Positions 36,328 through 49,570 of a stretch of 64,000 nt of DNA are shown here, piece after piece (position 1 is the stretch's first letter; every line of letters begins with the position of its first letter). The translations under genes and the position numbers were made by a program. The DNA is from an uncultured delta proteobacterium. Its GTDB lineage: Bacteria; Desulfobacterota; Binatia; DP-6. The notes below the pieces were generated by a model. That model ran no database searches. It had not been told where the DNA came from and saw only the letters and a list, made by a program, of their open reading frames with translations. The stretch lies in the NCBI GenBank assembly GCA_963713495.1, contig CAVQLX010000015.1:72738-136737 (forward strand), in the 5' to 3' direction.

Positions 36328-37325
36328 CGATCGAGCGGCGGCAGCTCGGGCGGAGCGGCCTCGAGGTGACGCGCCTCGGACTCGGCCTCGCCGCCATCGG
36401 CCGCCCCGGCTACATCACGCTCGGCCGGGCACGCGATCTCCCGGGGCCGCGCAGCCCGGACGCCATGTGGGCACGCTGTGCCGAGGTGCTCGACGCGGGG
36501 CGCGCTGCCGGTCTCCGCTACCTGGACGCTGCGCGGAGCTACGGGCGGGCCGAGGAGTTCCTCGGACGCTGGCTGGTGGAGCGCGGCGTGGCGCGCGACG
36601 AGGTGACGGTCGGCAGCAAGTGGGGCTACCGCTACACGGCGGGCTGGACGGTGGATGCGCCGGTGCACGAGCAGAAGGAGCACTCGGTGGAACGATTCCG
36701 GGGACAGCTCGCGGAGACGCGCGCGCTGCTCGGCGATCGGGTGGACCTGTACCAGATCCACAGCGCGACGGTGGAGTCGGGGGCGCTCGGCGACGCCGCG
36801 CTGCTCGTCGCGCTCGTCGAGGCGCGGCGGCGTGCCGCGTTCCGTGCCGTCGGGGTCACGCTGAGCGGTCCGGAGTCGGCGCGCGCACTCGAGCTGGCGC
36901 TCGCGGCGCGCGTCGACGGCGAGCGTGTCTTCGACGTCGTCCAGGCGACCTTCAACGTCCTCGAGCCGTCGCTGGGTCCGCGGCTCGCGACGGCACACGA
37001 CGAGGGACTGGGCGTGATCGTGAAGGAGGTGCACGCCAACGGCCGGCTCGCCGACACGAACGACCGACCCGACGACCGCGTGCTGCTCGCCGGGCTGCAC
37101 GCGGCCGCGCCCGGAGTGCCGGTCGACCGGCTCGCCGTCGCCTTCGTCCTGGCGCATCCATTCGTCGACGTCGCGCTCTCGGGCGCGGCGACGGTCGCGC
37201 AGCTCGCGTCGCACGCCGCGGCAGCCGGGACGCCCGCGCCGGATGGCGTGCGCGAGCGGCTGGCCGCGCTCGCCGAGCCTCCCGAGCGCTACTGGCGTAC
37301 CCGCGGCGCGCTGCCCTGGAGCTGA
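36324..37325 (+). CDS. Aldo/keto reductase
   Basis: ATGA overlap with the upstream stop. LGRSGLEVTRLGLG...SKWGY...IVKEVHANGRL AKR motifs. Confidence 0.85.
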   Translation: MTIERRQLGRSGLEVTRLGLGLAAIGRPGYITLGRARDLPGPRSPDAMWARCAEVLDAGRAAGLRYLDAARSYGRAEEFLGRWLVERGVARDEVTVGSKWGYRYTAGWTVDAPVHEQKEHSVERFRGQLAETRALLGDRVDLYQIHSATVESGALGDAALLVALVEARRRAAFRAVGVTLSGPESARALELALAARVDGERVFDVVQATFNVLEPSLGPRLATAHDEGLGVIVKEVHANGRLADTNDRPDDRVLLAGLHAAAPGVPVDRLAVAFVLAHPFVDVALSGAATVAQLASHAAAAGTPAPDGVRERLAALAEPPERYWRTRGALPWS

Positions 37326-37987
37326 GCCGCGCGCAGCACGCGCGCGAGGAGCACCAGGGTCACGATCCAGAACACGTGCGCGCCGACCGCGGCCGCCGGC
37401 ACGAGCCACCCGAGGCGGCCCGCGAGCGCGAACGCGACCGGGAAGACGTACCAGTCACGCGTCGTCAGCGGTCCGAGCACCCCGTCGAGCACCCGGTTCT
37501 CCCAGCGCGCCACGCGGCGGCGGCGCGATTCCGTGACCTCGCTCCACGTGATCGCTGCGAAGGCGCCGGCCACGCCGAGGCCGAGCGCCCCGAGGACGGG
37601 CCATCCCGGCACGGGCCCCGACCGCACCAGCCGGCGCACGATGCCGGCGAGCAGCGCGACGGCCACCAGCGTGTCGCCGGCGACGTCGAGCACGTGACCG
37701 AGCCGGGACTCGGCGTGCCGCAGACGCGCGAGCTCGCCGTCGCAGCAATCGAGGATGCCCGACGCGACGAGACACGCGACGCCCGCGAGCACACCCGCCG
37801 CGCCGCCGCTCCCCACCAGCCACCCGCCAGCGACGCCGATCGCCGCGCTCGCGAGCGTGACCGCGTTGGGCGAGATCGGCGTGGGCAGGAGCGCTCGCGT
37901 GAGCGGACGCGCGAGCGGGCGGTAGAGCAGCCGGTCGATGTAGCCGTCGCGCGGGTTGCCCGGGACCGGTTCCGCGCCGCTGGTCAT
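37289..37987 (-). CDS. CDP-alcohol phosphatidyltransferase family membrane protein
   Basis: Signature DCCDGELARLRHAESRLGHVLDVAGD (D-x2-DG-x2-AR...G-x3-D-x3-D) and about 6 TM helices. The ATG overlaps the upstream stop (ATGA). Confidence 0.8.
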   Translation of the reverse strand: MTSGAEPVPGNPRDGYIDRLLYRPLARPLTRALLPTPISPNAVTLASAAIGVAGGWLVGSGGAAGVLAGVACLVASGILDCCDGELARLRHAESRLGHVLDVAGDTLVAVALLAGIVRRLVRSGPVPGWPVLGALGLGVAGAFAAITWSEVTESRRRRVARWENRVLDGVLGPLTTRDWYVFPVAFALAGRLGWLVPAAAVGAHVFWIVTLVLLARVLRAAQLQGSAPRVRQ

Positions 37988-38721
37988 GCGTCGCGGAGCG
38001 CCTCGATGCGCGGCAGCACGTCCCGCTCCGCGCGGACGACGTCGTCCGGAAAGTCGATCTCGATCCACGGCAGGCCGTCGACCCGTTCGAATCCCACCTC
38101 CACCCGTGCCAGCAGCGCGGGGTACACCTCCTCGTGCTCGATGCCGGTGTCGCCGGCCTGCACGCGCGCCTCGAGGAGCTCGCGCAGGAGCGACGCCGCC
38201 GAAGCGGAGAGCTTCAGGAATCCGATCGACTCGCCCATCAGCTCGTACCCGGGCGCGCCGCCGCGCACGATGTCGCGCACCCGGCCGTCGCGCACCAGCA
38301 GCATCTGCTCCTCCCCGGTGTTCTCCTGCGCGGCGTCGAGGAGGAAGCAGTCGGCGTGCGGCGAGCGGACGAGGCGGTCGAGCATCACCTGCGCACAGAG
38401 GACGTCCGCGTCCATGACCAGCACCGCCCGGTCGAGCGCGTCCCGCGCCGTCCACAGCGAGAGGATCGCACCCTCGCGGAAGCGCGTGTTGGTCACGCAG
38501 CGCACGTCGATGCCGCGCACCCCCGCCGCCAGCGCGGCGCGCACGAGATCGTCCCCGAAGCCGGTGACCACCACGGCCTCGCGCACGCCGGCGGCCGCGA
38601 GGCCATCCAGCAGCCGGAGCAGCAGGCTGCGCCCGGCGATCTCGATCAGACACTTCGGCGTGCCGCCCGACGTGCCGAGGAGACGCTTGCCGACGCCGGC
38701 GGCGAGGATGATCGCGGTCAC
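37984..38721 (-). CDS. MobA-like / LicC-type sugar- or headgroup-phosphate nucleotidyltransferase (cytidylyltransferase candidate)
   Basis: VTAIILAAGVGKRL...TPKCLIEIAGRSLL N-terminal NTP-transferase motif. The GTG overlaps the stop of the transaminase (GTGA). Confidence 0.75.
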   Translation of the reverse strand: MTAIILAAGVGKRLLGTSGGTPKCLIEIAGRSLLLRLLDGLAAAGVREAVVVTGFGDDLVRAALAAGVRGIDVRCVTNTRFREGAILSLWTARDALDRAVLVMDADVLCAQVMLDRLVRSPHADCFLLDAAQENTGEEQMLLVRDGRVRDIVRGGAPGYELMGESIGFLKLSASAASLLRELLEARVQAGDTGIEHEEVYPALLARVEVGFERVDGLPWIEIDFPDDVVRAERDVLPRIEALRDA

Positions 38722-39779
38722 GCGGCCGGCGCCTCCAGCGCCTCTCCCAGCGCCGCGAGGAAGCGCGTGAAGTCGCCGCGCGAGAGCGCGCCCATGTTCG
38801 CGACCCGGAACGCCTCCCTGGCGAACGCGCCCTGGCCTTCGTAGATGACGAAGCCGCGCGCCTTCAGGGCATCGTGCAGCGCGGCGTAGGTGCGCCCGGC
38901 GGGGAAGCGAAGCGACGTGATGGTGTTCGAGAGCAGCGCGGAGGGCAGCACGCACTCGAGACCGAGACGCGCGAAGCCCACGCGCAGGAGCGTCGCGGCC
39001 GACGCGTACCGCGCGATGCGTGCGGCGACCGTCTCCTCGAGCAGCTCCGCGAGCGCCTCGTCGAGCGCGTACGCCACCTGCACCGCCGGCGTGAACGGCG
39101 TCGCGTGCGTCACGTAGGTCGCGAGCGAGAGATAGATCGAGCGCCGCGGATACGTGACCAGCCGCGCCATCACCTCGTCGCGCACCAGCACGAACCCGAG
39201 GCCGGGAAACGCCTGGATGCACTTGCCGCTCGTGCCGACGACCAGGTCGCACGCCCCCAGGTCGAGCGCGTCGCCGGCGAGACCGCTCACGGCATCGACC
39301 AGGACGAGCTTGCCGAGCGCGCGCGCACGCTGCGCGATGACGGCGACGGGGTTGAGCAGGCCCGTCGTGGTCTCGTGCTGCACGACGGCGACCGCCTCGA
39401 CGTCCGGCGCGCGCAACGCGTCCTCGACGGCGTCGAGGTCGGGCGCCGACGTCCAGGCCGATCCCACCACGGTGTGCGGGACGCGGGACGCCTCGGCCAT
39501 GGCGGCGATGCGCTCGCCGTAGACTCCGTTCGAGACCACGACCAGCCGGCCGCGCGGCGAGCACACGCTCGTCACCGCCGCCTCGACCGCCGCGGTGCCG
39601 GAGCCGGTGAGCAGCACGGCGGTGAATCCGCCGCGCGGGGCGAACGCCTCGAGCAATCGCGCGCGGACGCGCGCCAGCAGCTCGGCGCACTCGGGCTCGC
39701 GATGACAGATGTCGCCGCGCGCGAGGGCCGCGGTGACCCGGGGGGAGACGTTCACGGGCCCCGGGTTCAGCAGGATCAT
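38718..39779 (-). CDS. Class V (AGXT/PhnW-type) aminotransferase; candidate 2-aminoethylphosphonate--pyruvate transaminase
   Basis: MILLNPGPVNVS N-terminus, fold-type I class V region ...LLTGSGTAAVEAAV... and PLP-lysine region VVGTSGKCIQAFPGLGFV. Function inferred from context with ppm/ppd. Confidence 0.7.
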   Translation of the reverse strand: MILLNPGPVNVSPRVTAALARGDICHREPECAELLARVRARLLEAFAPRGGFTAVLLTGSGTAAVEAAVTSVCSPRGRLVVVSNGVYGERIAAMAEASRVPHTVVGSAWTSAPDLDAVEDALRAPDVEAVAVVQHETTTGLLNPVAVIAQRARALGKLVLVDAVSGLAGDALDLGACDLVVGTSGKCIQAFPGLGFVLVRDEVMARLVTYPRRSIYLSLATYVTHATPFTPAVQVAYALDEALAELLEETVAARIARYASAATLLRVGFARLGLECVLPSALLSNTITSLRFPAGRTYAALHDALKARGFVIYEGQGAFAREAFRVANMGALSRGDFTRFLAALGEALEAPAA

Positions 39780-41299
39780 CGCGGGCCGCTCCGTAGCATC
39801 GCACGCTGCGCCACGCCACCCGCGCGGTTCCAGCGCTCGAGCGCGCGGGCGAGCCGATCGACGCCCGCGGTGATCTCGCGTTCCGGGACGCCCGCGTAGC
39901 CGAGGTGGAGCCCGCGCCGGACGGGAGCGCTCACGTGATAGAGCGAGAGCGGGGGCGCGATCACGTCCTCGGCGCTCGCCGCCAGCGACGCAGCGACGTC
40001 GTCGGCGCCGGCCGCCAGCATCCCGGCGACCTGCATGCCGCCGTCGCGCGCGTCGACCGCGAGGATGCCGTCGAGACGGCGGCGCAGCGCGCGCACGAGA
40101 CGGTCCTGGCGTGACGCGTAGAGCGCGCGCATGCGGCGCACGTGCGCCGCGAAGTGGCCGTCGACGATGAAGTCTGCCAGCGCCGCCTGCAGATCGGCCG
40201 CCACCTGATGGCCGGTGAGCCGGACGGCAACCGTGAAGGCGTCGACCAGCGCCGCCGGGACCACCAGGTAGCCCGCGCGCAGCGCGGGGAACATGGTCTT
40301 GCTGAAGGTCCCGAGATAGACCACGCGGCCCGCCGCATCGAGGCCCTGCATGGCGGCGACCGGACGGCCGGCGTAGCGAAACTCGCTGTCGAAGTCGTCT
40401 TCGAGCACCCAGGCGCCGGCCCGTGCGGCCCAGGCCAGCAGCGTCAGGCGGCGCGCGAGGCTCATCGTGACACCGAGCGGGAACTGGTGTGACGGCGTCA
40501 CGTACACGAGGCGCGCGTCACCGCACGTGCGCGCGCCCGCGTCGACGTCGATTCCCTCGCCGTCGATCGGGACGGGGACGAGGCGGGCGCCCGCGGCGAG
40601 GAGGGCGCCGCGCGCGCCGAGGTATCCGGGATCCTCGATCCATGCCGGATCGCCCGCGTCGAGCAGGAGGCGGCAGGAGAGATCGAGTCCGGCCTGCGAG
40701 CCGGCCACGATGATCACCTGCGACGGGTCGCACGTGACGCCGCGCGCCGGCCCGAGATAGGCGGCGATGGCCTCGCGCAGCGACGGGAGGCCGGTGGCAT
40801 GCGTGTAGCCCAGGTTGCCGCGCGCCGGGAGGCGGGCACGCCGCGCGAGCAAGCGTGCCCAGACGTCGCGCGGAAACAGGTCGACCGCCGGCAAGCCGGG
40901 CTGGAACGCGCGCCGCAGCGGATCGGCCGTCGGGCGGCGCGCCGCGACCATCGCCTCGCCGCGACGCGACAGCCCGGGCGTCGCACCGCGCGGCGCGGGC
41001 GGCACGCGGGTGCGGCGCGCGTGCAGCAGCGTCTCGGGCAGCACCGCGGCGACGCGCGTTCCGTCGCCGACCCGGGACTCGAGATAGCCCTCGGCGACCA
41101 GCTGCTCGAACGCGGTCACCACCGTGTTGCGTGCGGCACCGACGTCGCGGGCCAGCGTGCGGGTCGCCGGCAGGCGGGTTCCGGGGCGTAGCCGCCCGGC
41201 CAGGATCGCCTCGCGCAGCGCGCCATACAGCTGGCGGTGGAGCGGCTCGCCGCCGCGATCGAGGGAGAGGGTCCCGAGGACGGCGCCGCGACGTGGCAT
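39776..41299 (-). CDS. MocR/GntR family transcriptional regulator with a PLP aminotransferase-like effector domain
   Basis: GntR wHTH (LPATRTLARDVGAARNTVVTAFEQLVAEGYL) followed by a fold-type I aminotransferase domain. Internal ATG at 41299 chosen (MPRRGAVLGTLSLDRGGEPLHRQLYGAL). The stop overlaps the transaminase start (ATGA). Confidence 0.8.
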   Translation of the reverse strand: MPRRGAVLGTLSLDRGGEPLHRQLYGALREAILAGRLRPGTRLPATRTLARDVGAARNTVVTAFEQLVAEGYLESRVGDGTRVAAVLPETLLHARRTRVPPAPRGATPGLSRRGEAMVAARRPTADPLRRAFQPGLPAVDLFPRDVWARLLARRARLPARGNLGYTHATGLPSLREAIAAYLGPARGVTCDPSQVIIVAGSQAGLDLSCRLLLDAGDPAWIEDPGYLGARGALLAAGARLVPVPIDGEGIDVDAGARTCGDARLVYVTPSHQFPLGVTMSLARRLTLLAWAARAGAWVLEDDFDSEFRYAGRPVAAMQGLDAAGRVVYLGTFSKTMFPALRAGYLVVPAALVDAFTVAVRLTGHQVAADLQAALADFIVDGHFAAHVRRMRALYASRQDRLVRALRRRLDGILAVDARDGGMQVAGMLAAGADDVAASLAASAEDVIAPPLSLYHVSAPVRRGLHLGYAGVPEREITAGVDRLARALERWNRAGGVAQRAMLRSGPR

Positions 41300-41388
41300 G
41301 GCGCGGGAAGACTTACCTCCATAATGGCTCCACTGGAAAGAGCGAAATGGACCTTCTCGTGGTACCAATCGTGTGCGATGAGGGGCGC

Positions 41389-42048
41389 ATGAATGCGACC
41401 GGCACCTTCGCACAGACCGAGCGGACCCGCGTGCGCCGCCTTCCGCAGCGCGCGTCGTACGACGTCGAGACCGTCCACGGCATCCTGGACGCCGGCCTCG
41501 TCTGTCACGTCGGGTTCGTCGAGGACGGCCGTCCCGTCGTCATCCCGACCGCGTATGCACGCGTCGGCGACACCGTGGTGCTCCACGGCTCGAGCAAGAG
41601 CCGCACGCTGCTCGCCGCCGCCGGGGGCGCAGAGATGTGCGTCACCGTCACGCACCTCGACGGCCTCGTGCTGGCGCGCTCGGCGTTCCACCACTCCGTC
41701 AACTATCGCTCGGTGGTGATCTTCGGGCACGCCGCCGAGGTGACCGATCCGGCGCGCAAGCGGGAGCTGCTGCGCGCGTTCACCGAGCGCCTCTATCCGG
41801 ATCGCTGGAGCGTGGCGCGTCCGCCGAACGAGCAGGAGCTGAAGGCCACGCTGGTCGTCGAGCTGCCGCTGCGCGAGGCCGTCGCCAAGGTCCGGACGGG
41901 CGGGCCGATCGACGACGCGGAGGACATGAGCCTCCCGGTCTGGGCCGGCGTCGTCCCGCTGCGGCTGGTCGCGGGCGCGCCGGAGGCCGCCGAGGATCTC
42001 GCCGGCGCGCCGTCACCCGCCGCGCTGGCGTGGCCGCCGGAGCACTGA
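41389..42048 (+). CDS. Pyridoxamine 5-prime-phosphate oxidase family (FMN-binding split barrel) protein
   Basis: COG3467-like: ...VETVHGILDAGLVCHVGFVEDGRPVVIPTAYARVGDTVVLHGS.... RBS GAGGGG before the ATG at 41389. An alternative start is at 41347. Confidence 0.65.
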   Translation: MNATGTFAQTERTRVRRLPQRASYDVETVHGILDAGLVCHVGFVEDGRPVVIPTAYARVGDTVVLHGSSKSRTLLAAAGGAEMCVTVTHLDGLVLARSAFHHSVNYRSVVIFGHAAEVTDPARKRELLRAFTERLYPDRWSVARPPNEQELKATLVVELPLREAVAKVRTGGPIDDAEDMSLPVWAGVVPLRLVAGAPEAAEDLAGAPSPAALAWPPEH

Positions 42049-42086
42049 CAGAGCGCGCGCGGAGCGCTCGGCGTCGTCGCCCTCGC

Positions 42087-42647
42087 CTAGCGGCGAGGCG
42101 GTCCGAACGTGCGCTCGAAGAGCCCCTCGACGGCGGCGCGCCCGTTGTCGCGCACGAAGCGCGTGCCGGTTCCCGTGAAGTGCGGGTGCGTGATGACGGG
42201 AACCTGCCCCGCCTGCCACGTCTCGCCGGTCCACTGGAACCAGCCGTCCTGATCCTGATCGAACACGTGCAGCCGCTTGTTGAAGAACTTCGCGTACTCC
42301 GCGCTCACGCCGGTTCCGCCGACCACGGTCCCGTCGGGCTGGATCTTCCCCACCAGGAAGATGTCCTGCCCGTTGTTCACCTGATGCCAGATGCTCTGCA
42401 GGACCTTCCGGAAGAGGGGCGTGTCGGGGTAGCGGCGGTTCATCAGCTTGCTGACGTACGTCAGGCTCACGTCGCCGTGCTTCAGCTCGGCACTGGTGAG
42501 CACGCGGATGCCGCGGGTCCTGGCATCACCGTGTCCCTCGAAGGTGAAGTTCACCTCCTCGATGCCGTAGCGCTCCGCGGTCTCGCCGAACGCTGCCTCG
42601 GCGCCCTGGGCGGCACCGCTGAAGAGGATGCATTCCTCGGGCTTCAC
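42087..42647 (-). CDS. Hypothetical protein, possible Rossmann-like (SLOG/DprA-LOG-like) fold; compositionally atypical
   Basis: Intact 186-aa ORF. N-terminal ILFSGAAQGAEAAFGETAERYG resembles SLOG-type nucleotide-binding loops. It is enriched in K/N/F/Q/W relative to its neighbours. Confidence 0.45.
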   Translation of the reverse strand: MKPEECILFSGAAQGAEAAFGETAERYGIEEVNFTFEGHGDARTRGIRVLTSAELKHGDVSLTYVSKLMNRRYPDTPLFRKVLQSIWHQVNNGQDIFLVGKIQPDGTVVGGTGVSAEYAKFFNKRLHVFDQDQDGWFQWTGETWQAGQVPVITHPHFTGTGTRFVRDNGRAAVEGLFERTFGPPRR

Positions 42648-43983
42648 GGCGTGTCCTCCGGCGGTGCCTTGTTCCCGATCCCGACCGTGGCGTCAACCCG
42701 CTGGCCGCGCCGCGCGTCGCGCTCGCGCAGCGCCTCGTACACGGGCCGATCGCGGAGGATGGCCGCGAAGAGGTAGGCGGCGAGGGCGGCCGTCGCCTGG
42801 GGGATCAGGTACCGTCCCGAGTGGGTGAGCTCGACCAGAAGCACGAGACCGGTCATCGGCGCGCGAACCGAGGCCACGAAGACGGCCACCATTCCCGCCG
42901 TCGCCAGTACGGGCCCGAGCGTGCCTCCACCGAGGTCCGGCGCGAGCACGTGCACGATCGCGCCCACGGCCGCGCCGAGCACCAGCTGGGGCGCGAAGAT
43001 GCCGCCCGGCACGCCACAGCCGTAGCTCGCGAGCGTGAGGGTGAACTTCACCAGGAGGAACACGACGAGGATCGCGAGAGCGGGCTGGAAGCTCCCGCGG
43101 ATCACCGCCCCGCCACCTTCTCGCCGCCGCCGATCGCCGCGGGCAGCCAGCACGCGACGCCTGCCGCCGCGACGCCGACCACGGCCGCGCCGAGCCACCG
43201 CGGTCCCGGCGCGGCCTCGAACACGTCGAGGACTCGCAGCAGCCCGCGGTTGAACGCCACCCCGAGCATCCCGGCTGCCAGCCCCAGGGCGAGAAACAGC
43301 GGCATGAGCGCCGCGGGCGGCGGCGGCACGGGCGGCATCTCGAACATCGGTCCAGGGCCGACCAGGCGCTGCGTGACGAGATACGAGGCCAGCACGGCGG
43401 GCAGCACCGTGGAGACCACCAGGCGGCTCGGCCGCAGCCGCAGCTCCTCGAGCACGAAGATGAAGCTGGCGATCGGGGCGCTGAACGCCGCCGTGAGGCC
43501 GGCTGCCGCGCCCGCGGCGAGCATCGCGCGCCGCGCCCGGACGCCCAGCGGCCCCTCCAGCGCGGACGCGATTCCCGCGCCCAGGTGTATCGTCGGCCCT
43601 TCCCGCCCGAGCGAGAGCCCCGAGACGAGCGCGAGCGCTCCGCCCACGAACTTGACGGGCAGCAGCCGGCGCCAGCGCAGGCGCCGGTCGTGCGCCATCG
43701 CTTCCTCGACGTGCGGGATGCCGCTGCCGGAGGCCTCGGGCGCGAAGCGCCCGGTGAGCCAGCGCGAGAGCGCCGCCCCGGCGCCGAACAGTGCCGCGAG
43801 CGCGAGCCAGCCGAGACGACCCCTGACGAGCGGCGCGATCCGCTCGCTCGACCAGGGAACGTCGGGACCGAGGACCAGCCGGTACCCGCCTCCGACCAGA
43901 CCCGTGATCCCGCCGGCCACCGCCGCGCGCACGGCCGGGCGCGGATCGAACGCCGGTGGCCGTCTGGCGGACGTCTCTGGCAC
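42644..43983 (-). pseudogene. ClC family voltage-gated chloride channel / H+-Cl- antiporter, apparent frameshift near 43115
   Basis: GSGIP and GREGP selectivity motifs are in the 43983 frame. The C-terminal half (...GSFQPALAILVVFLLVKFTLTLASYGCGVPGGIFAPQLVLGAAVG...) is in the 43198 frame. Confidence 0.7.
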
Positions 43984-44002: not shown

Positions 44003-44569
44003 TCAGGCCCCGAGGACGCGACGCAGCCGCGCGGTCATCTCCGGCGGCGTCCAGGGTATCCGCGGGCCCGGAGATCCCGCCGGACCGAGCGCGATGCGCA
44101 CCAGGAGGAACGCCGGCCCGTCACCTTCGAGAAATCCGGGGAGCACCGCGTCGAGCTCACTCGCCGACTCCACGCGAGCCGTCCAGCGATAGCCGGCGGC
44201 GCGCGCCAGCTCCTCGAGGGCGACGCGATCCGAGATGGTCGGCTGGCCGCCGGTGGACGCGTGAGCCGAGTTGTCGAAGCAGACGTGCAGCAGGTTCGAG
44301 GGACTCGCGGTCGCGATCGTGGCGAGGGCGCCCAGGTTCATCAGCACGTTGCCGTCGCCGTCGAACACGATGACGCGTCGATCGGGACGTGCCAGCGCGA
44401 CCCCGAGGCCGATCGACGCGGCCAGTCCCATCGAGCCGATCATGTAGAAGCAGGCGTCGGTGTCGCGCGCGCCGAACGCCGCGCGCGACAGGAACCCGTT
44501 GGCATGCACGCGCACCTCGTCGCCGAGGTGCGGAACGATCCGCTCCAGCGCGTCGCGCAGCGTCATCAT
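44003..44569 (-). CDS. Phosphonopyruvate (sulfopyruvate-type) decarboxylase beta subunit, TPP-binding C-domain
   Basis: TPP motif IVFDGDGNVLMNLGALATIA and IGSMGLAASIGLGVA. The start ATG overlaps the alpha-subunit stop (GTGATGATG). Confidence 0.8.
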   Translation of the reverse strand: MMTLRDALERIVPHLGDEVRVHANGFLSRAAFGARDTDACFYMIGSMGLAASIGLGVALARPDRRVIVFDGDGNVLMNLGALATIATASPSNLLHVCFDNSAHASTGGQPTISDRVALEELARAAGYRWTARVESASELDAVLPGFLEGDGPAFLLVRIALGPAGSPGPRIPWTPPEMTARLRRVLGA

Positions 44570-45090
44570 CACCCATGCTCCGTGAACAGGCCGGGCTTCA
44601 CGAGGAGCGCGACGGGCTTGCGCGTCGCGGAGAGCGTGGCAGCGGCCCAGTCGACGTCGGCGAGCACGGTCGTCGCATCCGGATCGCGATGCGGGATGGC
44701 GAACAGATCGAGCAACGGGGCCAGGACGCCGCCCATCACGAGGTGCTCGGGCGCGTCCTTCCCCTCGTATCCGCGCCACGTGATCACGAGGAGGACGGGC
44801 AGCTCGTACAGGATGTGCAGCGAGCCGAGCGCGTTCAGCGACACGCCGAGACCGGAGTTCTGCATGATCACGACCGGCCGGCGGCCGCCCAGGTAGGCAC
44901 CCGCGGCGACGCCGAGCGCCGCGTCCTCGCGTGTCTCGCCCAGGTAGCGGCCGCGACGCTCGAGCTCGGCGATCACCGGGCCGACGAGCGAGCAGGGGAC
45001 ACCGGCGAAGAAGTCGAAGCCGGCGGCGAGGAGTCGATCGACGAAGCTGGCAGCGGAGACCGGAGCGGTCAGCGCGCCACCTCCGCCCAC
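44569..45090 (-). CDS. Phosphonopyruvate (sulfopyruvate-type) decarboxylase alpha subunit, TPP-enzyme N-domain
   Basis: FVDRLLAAGFDFFAGVPCSLVGPV...VVIMQNSGLGVSLNAL. In-frame GTG at 45090, overlapping the end of ppm by 22 nt. Confidence 0.75.
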   Translation of the reverse strand: MGGGGALTAPVSAASFVDRLLAAGFDFFAGVPCSLVGPVIAELERRGRYLGETREDAALGVAAGAYLGGRRPVVIMQNSGLGVSLNALGSLHILYELPVLLVITWRGYEGKDAPEHLVMGGVLAPLLDLFAIPHRDPDATTVLADVDWAAATLSATRKPVALLVKPGLFTEHG

Positions 45091-46721
45091 GCCCGCCGGT
45101 AGTCGTCGAAGCTGTCGATCTCCATCCAGCCCTTGTGGATGTCGACCGCGACCACCGGGTGCCCGCGATCGATCAACGCCTGGAAGATGTGCGTGATGCT
45201 GCTGCGCTCCAGCCCCTCGGCGCGTTGCGCCGTCAGCTCGGCGTGGACGTCGAGCAACGTCTTCGCACCCGCGGCCGACAGCATGGCGAGCCCGATGAAC
45301 TCGCCGTGCGCCTCCTCGGGGCGCACCTCGGGCCCGATGCGCAGCACGCGGCTTCCGCCCTCGGGCGCGACGAAGCGACGGCCGTTGGGCGGCGTCTCCG
45401 TGACGACGAGATCGAGCGGGCCCGGGGGCGGCGGCATGCCGGCCTGGAGCGTGTCGACGAAGGCGCGATCGACGACGACCGCGACGTCCGCCGTCGAGCG
45501 CACGAGCTTCTCCAGGACCGGCGGCTCGAAGATGATGTCGCCGTAGAGGATCACGCACGGCCCGCTCAGCTCCGCGCTCGCGCACAGCAGCGACTCCAGC
45601 TCGCCCGTCTCGGCGAACCGGTCGTTGTCGACGTAGCGCGCGCCGTCGGCCGCCACCTGCTCCTTCTTGTATCCGCGTACCACCACGACGTCGCGGATGC
45701 CGACGCGCCCGAGCGACTCGATCTGACGGTCGAGGATGGTGCGGCCCTTCACCTCGAGCATCGTCTTCGGACGATCCTGGGTGAGCGGCAGGAGCTGCGG
45801 CTCGAATCCCGCCGCGAGGATGACGGCCTTCGGGGCCTCCGCGCCGGCGAAGAGGAAGCGCTGCTCGTTCGCCTTGAGCTCCGGGACGCCGACCAGGCGA
45901 TAGACCTCTTCCAGCGGCACGATCCGATCGTCCACGCTGGCCGCGCGGCCGGTCTCGCGCAGCCGCAGCAGGGTGTCGCGCATGGCGACGATGGCGGCGC
46001 GCAGCGGCTGGTTGGCGAAGATCGACATGCGGAAACCCGCCGCGGCGAGCTCCTCGAGACCGACCTCCGCGTAGGTGGTGGGCACCGCCACGAGAGGAAC
46101 GTGCGGCGACCCGTCGACGCGCCACCGATCGGCGAACCGGCGCAGCTCGCCGAAGTCGCGCTCCTTCGAGTGCACCAGGACGGCGTCGGCGCCCGCGTCG
46201 GCATAGGCCTTCGCGCGGTGCAGGGCGTCGTCGATGCCGAGGCCGGCGATCAGCGCCTCGGTGCGCGCGATGACGGCGAAGTCGGAGCTGCGCCGGGCCG
46301 AGCACGCCGCCTCGATCTTGCGCGCATGCTCCTCGGCCGCGACCAGATCGCGGCGCACCCCGGCGTAGAAGCTGCACCGCTTGGGAAACTCGTTGTCCTC
46401 GATGCAGATGCCCGCGGCACCGGCACGCTCGAACTCGCTCGCCGTGCGCATCACGTTGATGGCGTTGCCGTAGCCGTTGTCGCAGTCGGCGACGACCGGG
46501 ATGGTCACGGCATCGCAGATGCGACGGACCGCATCGAGCGTCTCGGTGAGGGTGAGGATGTTGGCGTCCGGCACGGCCTGGACCGCCGAGATGCCGAACC
46601 CGCTCGCCCAGACGGCGTCGAATCCGGCTTCCTCTGCGAGCTTGGCCGAGAGCGCATCGTGGGCACCTGCCGCCAGCACCACCCCCGGCCGCTCGAGCAA
46701 CCGCCTCAGACCCCCTGGCAT
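45069..46721 (-). CDS. ppm: Phosphoenolpyruvate phosphomutase fused to a C-terminal PntC/LicC-like nucleotidyltransferase domain
   Basis: Ppm/ICL-fold N-domain with the signature EDNEFPKRCSF (EDKxxxxxNS) and ...ADCDNGYGNA.... C-terminal approximately 250 aa KAVILAAGFEPQLLPLTQDRPKTMLEVKGRTIL is an NTP-transferase fold. 550 aa. Confidence 0.85.
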   Translation of the reverse strand: MPGGLRRLLERPGVVLAAGAHDALSAKLAEEAGFDAVWASGFGISAVQAVPDANILTLTETLDAVRRICDAVTIPVVADCDNGYGNAINVMRTASEFERAGAAGICIEDNEFPKRCSFYAGVRRDLVAAEEHARKIEAACSARRSSDFAVIARTEALIAGLGIDDALHRAKAYADAGADAVLVHSKERDFGELRRFADRWRVDGSPHVPLVAVPTTYAEVGLEELAAAGFRMSIFANQPLRAAIVAMRDTLLRLRETGRAASVDDRIVPLEEVYRLVGVPELKANEQRFLFAGAEAPKAVILAAGFEPQLLPLTQDRPKTMLEVKGRTILDRQIESLGRVGIRDVVVVRGYKKEQVAADGARYVDNDRFAETGELESLLCASAELSGPCVILYGDIIFEPPVLEKLVRSTADVAVVVDRAFVDTLQAGMPPPPGPLDLVVTETPPNGRRFVAPEGGSRVLRIGPEVRPEEAHGEFIGLAMLSAAGAKTLLDVHAELTAQRAEGLERSSITHIFQALIDRGHPVVAVDIHKGWMEIDSFDDYRRAWAEVAR

Positions 46722-46926: not shown

Positions 46927-48384
46927 ATGCGTACGCTCTTCTTGAATCCGCCGTCGTACGACGACTTCGACGGAGGCGCGGGCTCACGCTACCAGGCGAA
47001 GCGCGAGGTCTGGTCGTTCTGGTACCCCACCTGGCTCGCCTACCCGGCGGGCATGCTCCCGGGGGCGCGGCTGCTCGACGCGCCGCCGGAGGGTCTGAGC
47101 GTCGAGGACGTCGTGCGCGTGGCGCGCGACTTCGATCACGTCGTCATCCACACCAGCACACCGTCGTTCCGGGCGGACGTCCGCACCGCCGAGGCGCTGA
47201 AGGCGTCACGACCCGACACCGTCATCGGATTCGTCGGCGGACACGTCAGCGCGCGCCCCGAGGAGTCGCTCCGCTTCAGCGGCGCGCTCGACTACGTCGC
47301 GCGCAAGGAGTTCGACCTGGCCGTCGTGGCCGTCGCCAATGGCCGCCCGCTCGCCGACGTGCAGGGAATCAGCTTCCTCAGCGAGGGACGCTACGTCCAC
47401 ACCGACGAGCCCGCTCCGCTCGACAGCGAGCAGCTCGACGCGCTGCCGTTCGCCACCGACATCTACGCGCGCGACCTCGACTACAAGAAGTACAACAGCC
47501 CCTACTGCCAGTATCCGTACGTCTCGCTCTACACCGGCCGCGGCTGCCCGGCGCGCTGCACGTTCTGCCTCTGGCCGCAGGTGACGACCGGACACAGCTA
47601 CCGCACCCGCAGCGTCGCCAACGTGCTCGCGGAGTGCGCGCACGTGAAGCGGCTCTTCCCGGAGATGAAGGAGCTGTTCTTCGACGACGACACCTTCACC
47701 GCCGACCCGAAGCGCGCCGTCGAGATCGCGAAGGGGCTCGGCAAGCTCGGCATCACCTGGTCCACCAACTCGCGCGCCAACGTGGACCGCGAGACGCTGC
47801 AGGCGCTCGCCGAGAACGGGCTGCGTCTCTTCGTGGTGGGCTACGAATCGGGGAACGAGCAGATCCTGCGCAACATCCGCAAGGGAGTCGGCGTCGACCG
47901 GGCCCGCCGCTTCACTCGCGACTGCCACGACCTCGGCATCCTGATCCACGGCACGTTCATCCTGGGGTTGCCGGGCGAGACGCGCGACACGATCGTGGAG
48001 ACGATGCGGTTCGCGGACGAGATGCGGCCGGAGACGCTGCAGGTGTCGCTGGCGTCACCGTATCCGGGGACGGCGATGTACGACTGGGTGCGGGAGCGCG
48101 ACTACCTGACCGTCGACAGCCTGGTCGACGACACCGGCTACCAGAAGTGCACCGTGAGCTATCCCGAGGTGTCGGCGGACGAGATGTTCCGCGCCGTCGA
48201 GACGTTCTATCGCCACTACTACTTCAGCCGTCGCTACATCTGGAAGTCGATCAAGAAGATGGCGCGCGACCGCGAGGAGCGGAAGCGGCTCCTGTCGGAG
48301 GGGCGGCAGTTCCTCGGCGCGATGTGGAAGCGCCGCCAGATCGCCGCCGCGGCGGGACGCTCGGACCTCTCCACGGGGAGCTGA
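46927..48384 (+). CDS. hpnJ: Hopanoid biosynthesis-associated B12-binding radical SAM protein HpnJ
   Basis: N-terminus MRTLFLNPPSYDDFDGGAGSRYQAKREVWSFWYPTWLAYPAG is highly characteristic of HpnJ. Radical SAM CPARCTFC. RBS GGGGAAAGGG. Confidence 0.85.
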   Translation: MRTLFLNPPSYDDFDGGAGSRYQAKREVWSFWYPTWLAYPAGMLPGARLLDAPPEGLSVEDVVRVARDFDHVVIHTSTPSFRADVRTAEALKASRPDTVIGFVGGHVSARPEESLRFSGALDYVARKEFDLAVVAVANGRPLADVQGISFLSEGRYVHTDEPAPLDSEQLDALPFATDIYARDLDYKKYNSPYCQYPYVSLYTGRGCPARCTFCLWPQVTTGHSYRTRSVANVLAECAHVKRLFPEMKELFFDDDTFTADPKRAVEIAKGLGKLGITWSTNSRANVDRETLQALAENGLRLFVVGYESGNEQILRNIRKGVGVDRARRFTRDCHDLGILIHGTFILGLPGETRDTIVETMRFADEMRPETLQVSLASPYPGTAMYDWVRERDYLTVDSLVDDTGYQKCTVSYPEVSADEMFRAVETFYRHYYFSRRYIWKSIKKMARDREERKRLLSEGRQFLGAMWKRRQIAAAAGRSDLSTGS

Positions 48385-48385
48385 C

Positions 48386-49570
48386 GTGATCGCCCTGGTT
48401 CCGCTCGTGCTCGCGTGCTCCGCGATCGCCAGCTTCTACCAGCTCCTGCAGATCGTGGCGGCGCGGCGCTTCCTCCTGCGCTCGCGCCGTCTCCCGACCG
48501 GATACACCCCGCCCATCACCGTGCTGAAGCCGCTCAAGGGTCCCGGGGTCGAGCTGGCGACGAACCTCGAGACCTTCTGCCGTCAGGACTATCCCGAGTA
48601 CCAGATCGTGTTCGGCGTCGAGGACGCCGGTGACCCGGCGGTGGAGATCGTCCGTTCGCTCATGCGCCGGTTTCCCGACCGTGACATCACCCTCTCGGTC
48701 GGGGACGAGGAGGGAGCCAACCGCAAGGTCGCGAGCCTGGTGCACATGATGCGGCACGCCCGGCACGACGTGCTGGTGATCAGCGACGCCGACATCCGCG
48801 TGCGACCCGACTACCTGCGTACGCTGGCTGCTCCGCTGTCTGACCCGACGGTGGGGCTCACCACCTGCCTGTACCGCGGTCGCTCCATCATCGGGCTCCC
48901 GTCGCTGATCGAGTCGCTGTTCATCAACACCGACTTCCTGCCGATGGTGCTGATGGCGCAGTGGGTACAGCGATTTCGCTACGCCTACGGCGCCTCGACG
49001 GCGTTCCGGCGCGAGGCGCTCGCCGGCATCGGCGGATTCGACGCCCTGCGCGATCACCTCGCGGACGACTACGTGCTCGGCAACCGCATCGCCGACGCGG
49101 GATGGCGGCTGCTGCTGCTGCCCTACGTGGTCGAGACGGTCCTCGACTCGCGCACCCTCGGCGACGTCTGGCGACACCAGCTGCGCTGGGCGCGCACCTA
49201 TCGGGCATGCCAGCCCTTCGGCTGGTTCGTCTCGCTCATCGTCCACACCATGCTGTGGGGCGTGCTGGCGGTGCTCGCCACGAGCGGGTCGACCGTCGGC
49301 TGGATCGCGCTCCTCACGGCCATCGTCGCGCGCGTCGGGGCGCTTCGCGTGATCCTCGGCATGCTCGGCGATACGGCAACCGTGCGCGAGCTGTGGCTCG
49401 TGCCGCTGAAGGACCTCGCCTACTCGGCGGTCTGGATGACCTCGTGGCTCGGACGCGACGTCGTCTGGAGCGGGCAGCGCCTGCGCGTGCTGCCCGACGG
49501 TCGCATGCTCCCGCTGGACGCCGTCTCCGAACCGGCCCTCCCGTCGAAGCTGGCGGCGCCGTCGCGCTGA
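48386..49570 (+). CDS. hpnI: Hopanoid biosynthesis-associated GT2 glycosyltransferase HpnI
   Basis: TVLKPLKG...QDYPEYQIVFGVED...DAD motifs of HpnI-type GT2. GTG start 2 nt after the hpnJ stop. Confidence 0.8.
   Translation: MIALVPLVLACSAIASFYQLLQIVAARRFLLRSRRLPTGYTPPITVLKPLKGPGVELATNLETFCRQDYPEYQIVFGVEDAGDPAVEIVRSLMRRFPDRDITLSVGDEEGANRKVASLVHMMRHARHDVLVISDADIRVRPDYLRTLAAPLSDPTVGLTTCLYRGRSIIGLPSLIESLFINTDFLPMVLMAQWVQRFRYAYGASTAFRREALAGIGGFDALRDHLADDYVLGNRIADAGWRLLLLPYVVETVLDSRTLGDVWRHQLRWARTYRACQPFGWFVSLIVHTMLWGVLAVLATSGSTVGWIALLTAIVARVGALRVILGMLGDTATVRELWLVPLKDLAYSAVWMTSWLGRDVVWSGQRLRVLPDGRMLPLDAVSEPALPSKLAAPSR

Follow-up and report, generated by a model that had tools for sequence, protein, structure and literature searches.

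The window, a 64,000-nt stretch of DNA from an uncultured delta proteobacterium of the Binatia, carries a minus-strand gene for a protein that joins a PEP-mutase (Ppm)-clade domain to a nucleotidyltransferase (NTase)-fold domain. Its cluster context is phosphonate-type, with the following genes:

37289..37987, minus strand: membrane enzyme of the CDP-alcohol phosphatidyltransferase family (PF01066, 9e-11), overlapping the stand-alone NTase gene by 4 nt
37984..38721, minus strand: stand-alone nucleotidyltransferase with AAGVGKRL…TPK and M-D-A-D, the proposed real PntC (Pfam PF12804, PDB matches, synteny)
38718..39779, minus strand: AepZ/PhnW-like class-V aminotransferase (PnAA to AEP; best family TIGR03301, 310 bits, cut-off 360.8)
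39776..43983, no strand assigned: five-gene block within the operon, with a frameshifted CLC channel, a 186-aa hypothetical protein, a Pyridox_ox_2 protein and a MocR-type GntR/aminotransferase regulator (Pfam)
44003..44572, minus strand: phosphonopyruvate-decarboxylase-like TPP enzyme, beta half (TPP_enzyme_C; TIGR03297)
44569..45090, minus strand: phosphonopyruvate-decarboxylase-like TPP enzyme, alpha half (TPP_enzyme_N; TIGR03297)
45069..46721, minus strand: the 550-aa fusion protein, Ppm-clade domain, linker and LicC/PntC-fold domain (intact ORF, PF13714 and PF12804, AF2)
46927..49570, plus strand: divergently transcribed hopanoid-tailoring genes hpnJ (B12-radical SAM) and hpnI (glycosyltransferase) (TIGR03471, TIGR03472)

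The fusion gene and its neighbourhood

The fusion ORF runs on the minus strand from an ATG at 46721 to a TGA at 45071-45069, and its GC3 of 0.93 (0.47 at codon position 2) in a genome of ~71% GC marks it as a real gene. An earlier note on this DNA, made from the letters alone, had described a single 550-aa ORF with a PEP-mutase domain followed by an NTP-transferase domain, and this is borne out. Pfam places PEP_mutase (PF13714) at aa 5-251 (E=7e-56, exceeding the gathering score) and NTP_transf_3 (PF12804) at aa 299-418 (E=2e-14; 54.3 bits against a gathering score of 27), the quoted peptide KAVILAAGFEPQLLPLTQDRPKTMLEVKGRTIL lies at aa 298-330, and the reading frame contains no overlooked stop or frameshift between the two domains. 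In the AF2 model of the protein both domains are well folded, and the linker between them is of low confidence. Within the protein we distinguish the following features:

45882..46709, minus strand: PEP-mutase-clade TIM-barrel domain, aa 5-280 (solved relatives, Foldseek, TIGR02320)
46371..46400, minus strand: variant gating-loop motif E108-D-N-E-F-P-K-R-C-S117, in place of Ppm EDKxxxxxNS (alignment to 5unc/1m1b/2dua)
45831..45881, minus strand: inter-domain linker, aa 281-297, poorly conserved (pLDDT <50 at aa 276-288)
45078..45830, minus strand: LicC/PntC-fold nucleotidyltransferase-like domain, aa 298-548 (AF2, Foldseek)
45765..45815, minus strand: degenerate PPi-binding loop A303-A-G-F-E-P-Q…R-P-K319, in place of GXG(T/S)RX4-8PK (alignment to LicC GLGTRL and PntC GLGSR15L)
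45537..45545, minus strand: Y393-G-D395, with the catalytic/metal Asp kept (80/80) and Tyr invariant at the PntC Glu104/LicC Asp105 position (alignments to LicC and PntC)
45114..45122, minus strand: E534-I-D536, the C-terminal acidic metal-site motif, kept as E[IV]D in 74/80 and aligning with LicC YEIDS

The earlier note called the PEP-mutase domain complete; as folds both domains are, but each is missing residues from the motif diagnostic for its family. Likewise, the note's label of a Ppm-PntC fusion describes the Ppm-clade and LicC/PntC-fold architecture correctly but fails on the EDKX5NS motif, the TIGR02320 cut-off and the GxGxR signature.

Conservation counts below refer to 80 genomic homologues or loci from many phyla (>8), and partner-gene counts to the 45 of these loci with full flanks (well-flanked loci). 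The start of the PpdA-like alpha half overlaps the 3' end of the fusion gene by 22 nt; this half is linked to the fusion gene in 67/80 loci and the beta half is present in 40/45. Both halves score higher against the Ppd model TIGR03297 (120.7 bits for alpha, 171 for beta) than against the sulfopyruvate decarboxylase models (115 and 162 bits), with all of these scores below cut-off. The near-equality of the scores, together with an alpha/beta split like that of ComDE, would fit a sulfonate cluster in which the TPP enzyme is a sulfopyruvate decarboxylase and the mutase-like protein handles sulfopyruvate. We give this very little credence: Ppd is the better match for both halves, the best family of the aminotransferase is AepZ/PhnW, the NTase and the CDP-alcohol transferase require a phosphoryl or phosphonyl nucleophile, and the nearby genes include no sulfolactate or sulfite enzymes.

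Phosphonate-type partners recur around the fusion gene to differing extents. The CDP-alcohol transferase is found in 39 of the 45 well-flanked loci, Sorangium and Rokubacteria included. The AepZ-like aminotransferase occurs in only 20/45, and AEP is therefore not the product everywhere. The five-gene block that lies within the operon here is found in some loci (L001, L004, L014, L017, L019), and in others (L005, L006, L010, L011, L012, L018) the operon is contiguous and the block absent. The divergent neighbours hpnJ (TIGR03471, 694 bits, >578) and hpnI (TIGR03472, 383 bits, >310) are linked to the fusion gene in only 14-17/80 loci, all Binatia-like.

The N-terminal PEP-mutase-clade domain

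The nearest solved relatives of the N-terminal domain are Ppm 5unc (2e-76), the hydrolase PPH 2dua (1e-64) and Mytilus Ppm (6e-58), with lyases of the ICL superfamily far behind (~1e-37, <=3e-37); Foldseek returns the same order, with 5unc the best match. TIGR02320 is the best-scoring family at 275.6 bits, yet this lies below its equivalog cut-off of 319.55, and the domain likewise falls under the cut-off of TIGR02321. In a neighbour-joining tree rooted on PrpB, 79% of replicates recover the domains of the fusion family as monophyletic and 90% join them to EDN…NS forms; they fall inside or beside the canonical Ppms.

Alignment to the Mytilus enzyme pairs off all Mg2+ and substrate ligands. Ligands D58, D85, D87 and E114 align to D52, D79, D81 and E108, and K120, S123, R159 and H190 to K114, S117, R153 and H184; these metal and substrate ligand positions are invariant in close homologues, and the domain differs from the Ppm ligand set solely at the equivalents of Lys116 and Asn122. 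Both differences fall in the Ppm-defining EDKX5NS motif, which here reads EDNEFPKRCS. Across the family the gating loop follows the pattern ED[NSA]xFPK[RKQT]CS, with Cys-Ser invariant in 80/80 genomic and 118/120 close homologues; in none of the 80 fusion homologues is there a K at motif position 3 or an N at position 9. Members of the resulting ED[NSA]x4[KR]CS clade occur in Binatia, Rokubacteria, Planctomycetota, Omnitrophota, Acidobacteria, Chlamydiae and cultured Sorangium.

Asn122 is believed to grip the phosphoryl group as it migrates, and an N at this position is taken to mark a mutase, a T a hydrolase (PMC7916636). Because a Cys stands there, mutase activity of the N-terminal domain is only predicted. 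The replacement could instead mean that this member of the Ppm/PPH clade has acquired a new function and acts on PEP, phosphonopyruvate or an analogue in some other way, which would make the chemistry of the cluster new. The invariant exchanges of K for N/S/A and of N for C at the very position that divides the two activities, a Cys recalling the catalytic Cys of KRCGH lyases, the sub-threshold TIGR scores and the separate clade all speak for such a change. We nevertheless regard it as improbable: true Ppms are its nearest relatives of solved structure (48% identity), the other catalytic and metal ligands are kept, translational coupling ties the gene to a Ppd-like decarboxylase that depends on phosphonopyruvate, no second Ppm homologue is present in the window or within +/-10 kb at the 80 loci, and the other cluster genes follow the pattern of canonical Ppm 'CDP-OH' clusters. 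Most likely, this variant-loop lineage of PEP mutases (ED-N-x-FPK-R-C-S rather than ED-K-x-FPK-x-N-S) would convert PEP to phosphonopyruvate.

The fused and the stand-alone nucleotidyltransferase

Modelled alone by AF2, the C-terminal domain is confidently folded (pLDDT 90.4, pTM 0.90), and its top Foldseek matches are LicC (1jyk, 2.8e-15) and PntC (6pd2, 3.4e-15), with TM ~0.7-0.8, and the inositol-1-P cytidylyltransferase IPCT; GMPPB (7D72) also appears among our search matches, and eIF2B-epsilon among the profile hits. The earlier note had made its reading depend on a G-x-G-x-R/K-L signature in this domain, and here it fails: aligned to LicC and Tde-PntC, the stretch reads G305-F-E-P-Q309-L, with Glu for the second Gly and Gln for the Arg. 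Across the 80 homologues this PPi loop is hypervariable and without the signature Arg, which argues that the leaving-group site is under no constraint. A second departure concerns the acidic residue that binds the amine or choline (Tde E104/Spn D105), replaced by an invariant Tyr393. Other elements persist, including the alpha-phosphate Lys of the consensus (Lys25, here K319; PK in 76/80); the central ~120 residues, including the region of Lys153, which contacts a phosphonate oxygen, are unalignable by sequence to 6pd1/1jyk. In Tde-PntC, the mutants R15A, K25A and K153A each have <10% activity (PMC6697681).

Loss of the signature and a hypervariable loop might suggest that the domain is a functionless relic, a former PntC in decay. 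However, it is full-length in all 80 homologues from >8 phyla with 27 invariant positions, is free of frameshifts and has a confidently predicted fold, and its cross-phylum identity of 48% (58% for the N-terminal domain) indicates that it is under selection; we consider a relic highly implausible. Since Lys, Asp and metal site are all still there, some residual or altered catalysis may survive in the domain, either with a different donor or with compensation by a basic residue, for example the near-invariant R332.

The second nucleotidyltransferase gene at 37984..38721 (minus strand), which the earlier note had recognised, is real (NTP_transf_3, E=9e-14). Against the PDB it matches IPCT (2e-10), PntC 6pd1 (3e-9) and LicC (4e-7), scoring about equally for inositol-1-P cytidylyltransferase and PntC, so that its substrate assignment is putative. 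Exact GxGxR is present in 51/63 of these stand-alone NTases, the Arg in at least 56/63 and PK in 60/63; 54/63 carry a LicC-like D-A-D (MDAD) at the site of the fused domain's invariant Tyr. Among 50%-identity cluster representatives, full GxGxR is found in 53/59 stand-alone relatives but in 0/29 Ppm-fused ones, the latter being relatives of this C-terminal domain rather than a census of all Ppm fusions. The stand-alone gene accompanies the fusion in 44/45 well-flanked loci.

The earlier note had taken the second NTase as a sign of either two activated head groups or sequential activation steps. A bifunctional Ppm-PntC of this kind, with a fused domain active through an unorthodox PPi loop and a stand-alone enzyme serving a sequential step or a second head group, for example inositol or another alcohol phosphate, seems to us unlikely, although it is the strongest competitor. 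It can draw on a PF12804 score above gathering, a complete LicC/PntC fold with Lys, catalytic Asp and acidic metal site kept under purifying selection, the literature's practice of counting Ppm-fused PF12804 domains as PntCs (PMC6697681, PMC8942020), the rank of IPCT as the stand-alone enzyme's best solved relative, and an inositol-1-P synthase (MIPS) encoded in four Rokubacteria-type loci. It must also accommodate a loop lacking both the second Gly and an Arg whose replacement alone leaves Tde-PntC with <10% activity, the 0/29 count, the Tyr in place of the amine-binding acid that the stand-alone enzymes keep, and a MIPS gene in only 3/45 well-flanked loci. A near-universal partner with a canonical signature makes for a simpler reading, one working cytidylyltransferase and one disabled domain: the fused domain is probably not a working cytidylyltransferase, and the separate neighbouring gene probably encodes it. 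The interpretation offered by the earlier note is, overall, partly supported.

A proposed pathway and its relation to known systems

From architecture, motif state, conservation, synteny and fold we infer that the fusion protein catalyses the opening step of a phosphonate pathway of the cell envelope, probably leading to an AEP-lipid. The N-terminal domain would supply phosphonopyruvate, which the translationally coupled split decarboxylase PpdA/B would draw onward to phosphonoacetaldehyde, and the AepZ-like transaminase would convert this to 2-aminoethylphosphonate. CMP-AEP would be formed by the stand-alone NTase, not by the fused domain; the former combines an intact GxGxR…PK with an acidic, LicC-like residue for binding the amine. 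The CDP-alcohol phosphatidyltransferase would then join the phosphonyl head group and a lipid alcohol into a phosphonolipid. With its Gly-rich, Arg-containing, pyrophosphate-holding loop lost, the C-terminal domain is most likely a non-catalytic module that binds a nucleotide or CMP-phosphonate. By analogy with other NTase-fold proteins, it could have a regulatory or partner role, relaying the level of the end product back to the mutase as a sensor, or docking the stand-alone NTase, in the way that GMPPA serves GMPPB and the large subunit of AGPase serves the small one. Taken as a whole, this combination of a variant PEP mutase, a stand-alone working cytidylyltransferase and a non-catalytic fused domain has, in our judgement, an even chance of being correct.

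These observations bear on how phosphonate pathways are counted. Published counts of phosphonate producers across genomes and metagenomes demand a perfect EDKX5NS motif (PMC6697681, PMC8942020, PMC12723261). Members of the EDN…CS clade span phyla and sit within complete Ppd/AepZ/NTase/CDP-OH clusters; if they turn out to be active as mutases, such surveys underestimate the phosphonate-lipid capacity of soil, and if they do not, an invariant Cys at the site where mutase and hydrolase differ points to chemistry that is new to this well-studied superfamily. The literature also counts the Ppm-fused PF12804 'PntC' as the commonest nucleotidyltransferase of phosphonate clusters, and nucleotidyltransferases 'directly fused to ~60% of Ppm' have been presented as support for the predominance of nucleotidyl activation. 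In the PF12804 fusions sampled here the signature is never present while an intact stand-alone NTase almost always is; if this is general, fusion serves regulation or assembly rather than catalysis, which offers a concrete and testable reason for the apparent fusion of the first pathway step with a late one. Ppm-fused PF12804 modules may couple the first committed step to the CMP-phosphonate level or to the true PntC. More generally, that these modules are as a class non-catalytic sensors or adaptors and that the ED[NSA]x4[KR]CS clade comprises hidden C-P-bond formers or a new Cys chemistry is, as a joint proposition, tentative and somewhat more apt to prove wrong than right. Cultured Sorangium strains carry the cluster, making experiments feasible.

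Among known systems, canonical Ppms (Mytilus edulis 1M1B/1PYM, Streptomyces platensis 5UNC) and PPH (2DUA) share 37-48% identity, the barrel and the metal and substrate ligands with the N-terminal domain, in which Asn, Ser or Ala replaces Lys116 and an invariant Cys takes the place of Asn122 (Thr118 in PPH). Tde-PntC (Tde1415, 6PD1/6PD2) and Spn-LicC (1JYK/1JYL) have the fold, the alpha-phosphate Lys, the catalytic Asp and the C-terminal acidic motif in common with the C-terminal domain, which lacks their Arg15 and second Gly and has Tyr for E104/D105. The arrangement differs as well, since our domain sits behind a mutase, LicC is free and the PntC domain of Tde1415 lies ahead of an AEPT.

NTase-fold regulatory paralogues without catalytic-loop residues include the AGPase large subunit, GMPPA and eIF2B gamma/epsilon. 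Like AGPase-L and GMPPA, the fused domain keeps the fold under purifying selection without the catalytic residues of the Gly-rich loop and co-occurs with a catalytically intact paralogue; unlike them, it is joined to an unrelated first-step enzyme, and association, ligand binding and regulation are suggested by analogy only.

Fom1 of the fosfomycin pathway likewise combines a Ppm with a cytidylyltransferase-type domain and is a precedent for active Ppm fusions (PMC6697681). Its CyTase, however, is N-terminal and of the unrelated HxGH-type fold PF01467, whereas the domain here is C-terminal and PF12804, and a Pfam search of our fusion protein gave no match to PF01467.

The closest counterparts are the Ppm-PF12804 fusions inventoried by Rice et al. 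2019 (PMC6697681) and Li & Horsman 2022 (PMC8942020), which, as the earlier note rightly stated, had been reported before and make up 33% of Ppm (PMC6697681). These inventoried fusions, above all the 'Burkholderiales_CDP-OH' families, have the domain order and Pfam families seen here, and the latter share the cluster logic of Ppm-fusion, Ppd, AEPT, a second stand-alone PntC and CDP-alcohol/phospholipid genes; phosphonolipid-type 'CDP-OH' clusters carry two PntCs, one of them fused (PMC8942020), and a fusion with a second PntC has already been described in both studies (PMC6697681, PMC8942020). Unlike the inventoried fusions, the ED[NSA]x4[KR]CS clade is missing from the published Ppm sets (PMC6697681, PMC8942020), excluded by design because EDKX5NS was the filter. 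We found no description of the disabled loop or of the EDN…CS clade in the searchable literature, and in the accessible literature neither an assay of a Ppm-fused PF12804 domain nor a remark on its missing GXG(T/S)R.

The fusion gene and its surroundings

The window has a G+C content of ~71%, and the fusion occupies an uninterrupted reading frame whose codon-position GC (0.73/0.47/0.93) has the pattern of a real gene. As the earlier note had proposed, this one frame encodes both a PEP mutase (Ppm) domain and an NTP-transferase domain: Pfam matches far over the gathering score place PEP_mutase at residues 5-251 (7e-56) and NTP_transf_3 at residues 299-418 (2e-14), and the AlphaFold model contains two folded domains with a low-confidence linker (residues 276-288). 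The peptide cited in that note lies at residues 298-330, and the second nucleotidyltransferase gene it reported is real.

Features of the fusion locus (coordinates, strand, description)
45069-46721 (-): fusion gene, operon member; 550 codons, ATG at 46721, TGA at 45071-45069
44569-45090 (-): PpdA (phosphonopyruvate decarboxylase, Ppd), operon member
44003-44572 (-): PpdB, operon member
39776-43983: five-gene block, with a frameshifted CLC channel, a 186-aa hypothetical protein (no Pfam match), Pyridox_ox_2 and a MocR-type GntR-aminotransferase regulator
38718-39779 (-): AepZ/PhnW-like aminotransferase (TIGR03301, 310 bits, short of the 360.8 cut-off)
37984-38721 (-): stand-alone nucleotidyltransferase (NTase2), after the aminotransferase gene
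37289-37987 (-): CDP-alcohol phosphatidyltransferase, after the stand-alone NTase gene
46927-49570 (+): hpnJ and hpnI, over NCBIfam cut-offs
51396-52307 (-): hpnK
35506-36327 (+): HpnL-like flippase-type membrane protein

The aminotransferase, stand-alone NTase and CDP-alcohol phosphatidyltransferase genes have 4-nt overlaps. Between ppdB and the aminotransferase gene, the phosphonate operon is split by the five-gene block, which is present in some Binatia-like relatives (loci L001, L004, L014, L017 and L019) and absent from L005, L006, L010, L011, L012 and L018, where the operon is contiguous. The block's voltage-gated chloride channel (CLC) gene (42644-43983, minus strand) consists of two overlapping ORFs (43102-43983 and 42644-43198) with the frameshift near a G-rich run coding GGGE; the split marks either a pseudogene or a fault of the assembly. 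On the opposite strand, an aldo/keto-reductase ORF (36576-37325, plus strand) overlaps the 3' end of the CDP-alcohol transferase gene and aligns only from position 60 of its Pfam profile on; either its true start lies further upstream or the gene is truncated.

hpnJ and hpnI lie divergently upstream of the fusion with hpnK nearby, all three over their NCBIfam cut-offs. Among the 80 genomic loci that hold homologues of the fusion, this adjacency is confined to Binatia-like loci, and the window contains no hopanoid core genes (no shc, no hpnH). We treat the hpn genes as a lineage-specific neighbourhood outside the phosphonate system; with the HpnL-like protein's gene they flank the phosphonate cluster in Binatia-like loci only, a position that could hint at a phosphonate-decorated hopanoid, and a 'phosphonoterpene' has been speculated for Nitrosococcus clusters (Li & Horsman, PMC8942020). 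The adjoining B12-radical SAM protein was rejected as a Fom3/PhpK-type P- or C-methyltransferase of the phosphonate pathway: it is HpnJ (694 bits, above the cut-off) in the company of HpnI and HpnK, and its linkage to the fusion is found only in Binatia. Between hpnI and hpnK lies a 540-aa protein (49786-51408, plus strand) of the sulfatase/alkaline-phosphatase superfamily, which also covers phosphoethanolamine and phosphoglycerol transferases.

A mutase domain with an altered gating loop

The nearest solved structures to the N-terminal domain are true PEP mutases (5unc, 2e-76, 48% identity; the Mytilus enzyme, 6e-58); phosphonopyruvate hydrolase matched at 1e-64 and C-C lyases at <=3e-37. The full set of metal and substrate ligands has aligned counterparts (D52, D79, D81, E108, K114, S117, R153, H184). 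The top family is the PEP mutase family TIGR02320, yet the score of 275.6 bits falls below the cut-off of 319.55. PEP mutases are defined by the gating-loop motif EDKX5NS (PMC6697681, PMC8942020; still so in PMC12723261, Dec 2025), in place of which the fusion has EDNEFPKRCS. Across the 80 homologues the loop reads ED[NSA]xFPK[RKQT]CS, with an invariant Cys-Ser and never a Lys at position 3. A role in keeping hold of the phosphoryl group as it migrates is ascribed to Asn122 of the canonical motif, and a Thr in its place is widely read as the mutase/hydrolase switch (PMC7916636); the KRC of the fusion resembles the KRCGH of lyases (EDQVGAKRCG in E. coli PrpB).

In a neighbour-joining tree with each bootstrap replicate rooted on PrpB, the fusion family was monophyletic in 79% of replicates and grouped with two 'intermediate' EDN…NS representatives (P0147 and P0173) in 90%, whereas canonical EDK mutases were monophyletic in just 42%. 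By these groupings the family sits among or next to the true mutases and is not lyase-like. The two intermediates (EDNLYPKNHS and EDNPFPKQNS) share the Lys-to-Asn change and have Asn-Ser or His-Ser instead of Cys-Ser, which suggests an order of substitutions.

Translational coupling joins the fusion to a Ppd-like gene (GTG at 45090, a 22-nt overlap with the fusion's end), and PpdA and PpdB overlap in turn, stop on start. Neither the window nor the +/-10 kb around any of the 80 loci yielded a second Ppm homologue, and we rejected redundancy of the fusion to a nearby second Ppm. Most economically, the fusion is the cluster's putative source of phosphonopyruvate. A neofunctionalised mutase domain, which the gating loop might suggest and which would be compatible with any reading of the C-terminal domain, seems improbable beside the complete ligand set and the coupled Ppd genes. 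We regard a sulfonate pathway as very unlikely.

A cytidylyltransferase fold and its missing signature

In Foldseek the full-length model gave mostly mutase matches, and the C-terminal domain was therefore modelled separately (AlphaFold; pLDDT 90.4, pTM 0.90). Alone, its top structural matches included S. pneumoniae LicC (1jyk, 2.8e-15, TM 0.81) and T. denticola PntC (6pd2/6pd1, ~3e-15 to 1e-14), with inositol-1-P cytidylyltransferases likewise among the leading matches. Sequence and profile searches agreed, matching LicC at 9e-15 (single sequence) and 1e-18 (family profile) and PntC at 7e-12 (profile). In predicted structure, nothing of a LicC/PntC-type cytidylyltransferase is missing from the domain.

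The family consensus is GXG(T/S)RX4-8PK, whose opening five residues make up the pyrophosphate site; in Tde-PntC, any one of R15A, K25A and K153A cuts activity to <10% (Rice et al., PMC6697681). LicC AAGLGTRL and PntC GGLGSRL align to AAGFEPQL in the fusion, which has Glu for the second Gly, Pro for Thr/Ser and Gln for Arg, and keeps the PK lysine (K319). On this alignment the domain is without the G-x-G-x-R signature, the result that the earlier note had set beforehand as refuting its Ppm-PntC reading. The position that contacts the amine or choline, two residues ahead of the catalytic Asp (PntC Glu104, LicC Asp105; PMC6697681), is an invariant Tyr in the fused domain.

The 120 nearest database homologues (72-100% identity) are every one a ~545-aa fusion, and 118 carry G-[FY]-E-P-[QE]-L or a close variant. 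The 80 genomic homologues comprise Binatia-like MAGs (74-87% identical, presumably of the same lineage as the window) and others at ~50% identity, among them cultured Sorangium strains, Rokubacteria, Planctomycetota, Omnitrophota, Acidobacteria and Chlamydiae. Across these 80, the loop is hypervariable at its four residues (GFEPQ, GQSQG, GSGKS, GQGFKEH and so on) and the canonical Arg occurs in none; the PK Lys is retained in 76, the catalytic-site Asp (Y-G-D) in all 80 and the metal motif at the C-terminus, E-[IV]-D, in 74. Identity at phylum distance is 48% in the C-terminal domain, with 27 invariant positions, vs 58% in the mutase domain. Conservation of the whole domain around a hypervariable, Arg-less loop indicates purifying selection from which the leaving-pyrophosphate site is exempt. 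Judged from these alignments, loss of the signature is ancient and selective rather than decay, and a functionless relic, for which the lost loop might speak, is hardly credible.

The fused domain appears to keep the requirements for holding an NMP-phosphonate and a metal ion, and to be without those for holding pyrophosphate and an amine in the PntC manner. Since the former parts are kept and the latter gone, we take it, with middling confidence, to be most likely a non-catalytic module for ligand binding or docking. That it is instead an active, unorthodox PntC, the second NTase serving another substrate, would fit the complete fold and the retained Asp and sits poorly with the absent Arg; we think this rather unlikely.

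The stand-alone partner and relation to known systems

Across the 80 loci the gene order fusion-PpdA-PpdB-(aminotransferase)-NTase recurs as a conserved core, mostly followed by the CDP-alcohol phosphatidyltransferase. An iterative sensitive search of six-frame ORFs in the 45 loci with at least 6 kb on either side found the stand-alone NTase in 44, Ppd in 40, the CDP-alcohol transferase in 39 and the aminotransferase in 20. Inositol-1-P synthase (MIPS) was present in only 3/45, making it unlikely that NTase2 is in general an inositol-1-P cytidylyltransferase. The stand-alone NTases have an exact GxGxR in 51/63, the Arg in at least 56/63, PK in 60/63 and M-D-A-D at the amine-contact position in 54/63. 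By gene order and sequence, NTase2 is the constant, canonical partner of the fusion. The contrast reaches beyond the fusion family: among the 50%-identity cluster representatives nearest to the C-terminal domain, a sample biased to relatives of the query and no census, full GxGxR occurs in 53/59 stand-alone proteins vs 0/29 with a detectable Ppm domain, including 0/9 carrying the canonical EDK…NS motif, and the Asp is retained in all. The nearest stand-alone relatives of the fused domain (P0148-P0270; ~250 aa, canonical GxGxR) have a Tyr and no acid two residues ahead of the catalytic Asp in 53/59, and form an NTase subfamily distinct from the cluster's D-A-D type.

In Rokubacteria-type loci (L020, L023, L050, L054; e.g. 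L023 14050-17712) the cluster extends past the NTase and CDP-alcohol transferase genes to LPG_synthase_TM (flippase-like), a HalD-like 2OG-Fe(II) oxygenase and myo-inositol-1-phosphate synthase, which suggests a hydroxylated phosphonate, an inositol-containing lipid or both as the product in that lineage. In four Polyangiaceae/Polyangiales MAG loci (L035, L037, L038, L056) a canonical stand-alone NTase directly follows the fusion gene. A triple Ppm-NTase-NTase fusion was considered there and rejected: the fusion protein ends after ~550 aa, and a separate ORF encodes the canonical NTase. These four loci are without a Ppd-like gene over 10 kb, so that either the decarboxylase would be encoded elsewhere or phosphonopyruvate used differently.

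From this gene content we infer a pathway in which the variant mutase would convert PEP to phosphonopyruvate, PpdAB would yield phosphonoacetaldehyde and, in loci having the aminotransferase, AepZ would form 2-aminoethylphosphonate (AEP). The stand-alone NTase would then make CMP-AEP, and the CDP-alcohol transferase a phosphonolipid.

For canonical Ppm, fusion to a PntC alongside a second NTase has already been described, and the arrangement is known. Only 22 fused proteins without the EDKX5NS motif figure in Rice et al. (PMC6697681), and the EDN…CS clade was left out of both published inventories because both filtered on that motif. In the searchable literature outside subscription journals, we came upon no paper that tests a Ppm-fused PF12804 domain, no description of a signature-less fused domain beside a signature-keeping, obligate stand-alone partner, and none of the phylum-spanning EDN…CS clade. 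A clade with an invariant Cys for Asn122, in complete phosphonate-type clusters, is invisible to motif-based surveys. Two wider readings, a class-wide 'pseudo-PntC' and a 'hidden or novel mutase', we rate as less likely than not.

NTase-fold paralogues that have lost loop residues act as regulatory partners of an intact paralogue in the AGPase large subunit, GMPPA and eIF2B gamma/epsilon. The fused domain resembles them in lacking loop residues beside an intact NTase, and by analogy may have a comparable role; the activated end product might then feed back on the first committed step, which would be metabolically sensible.
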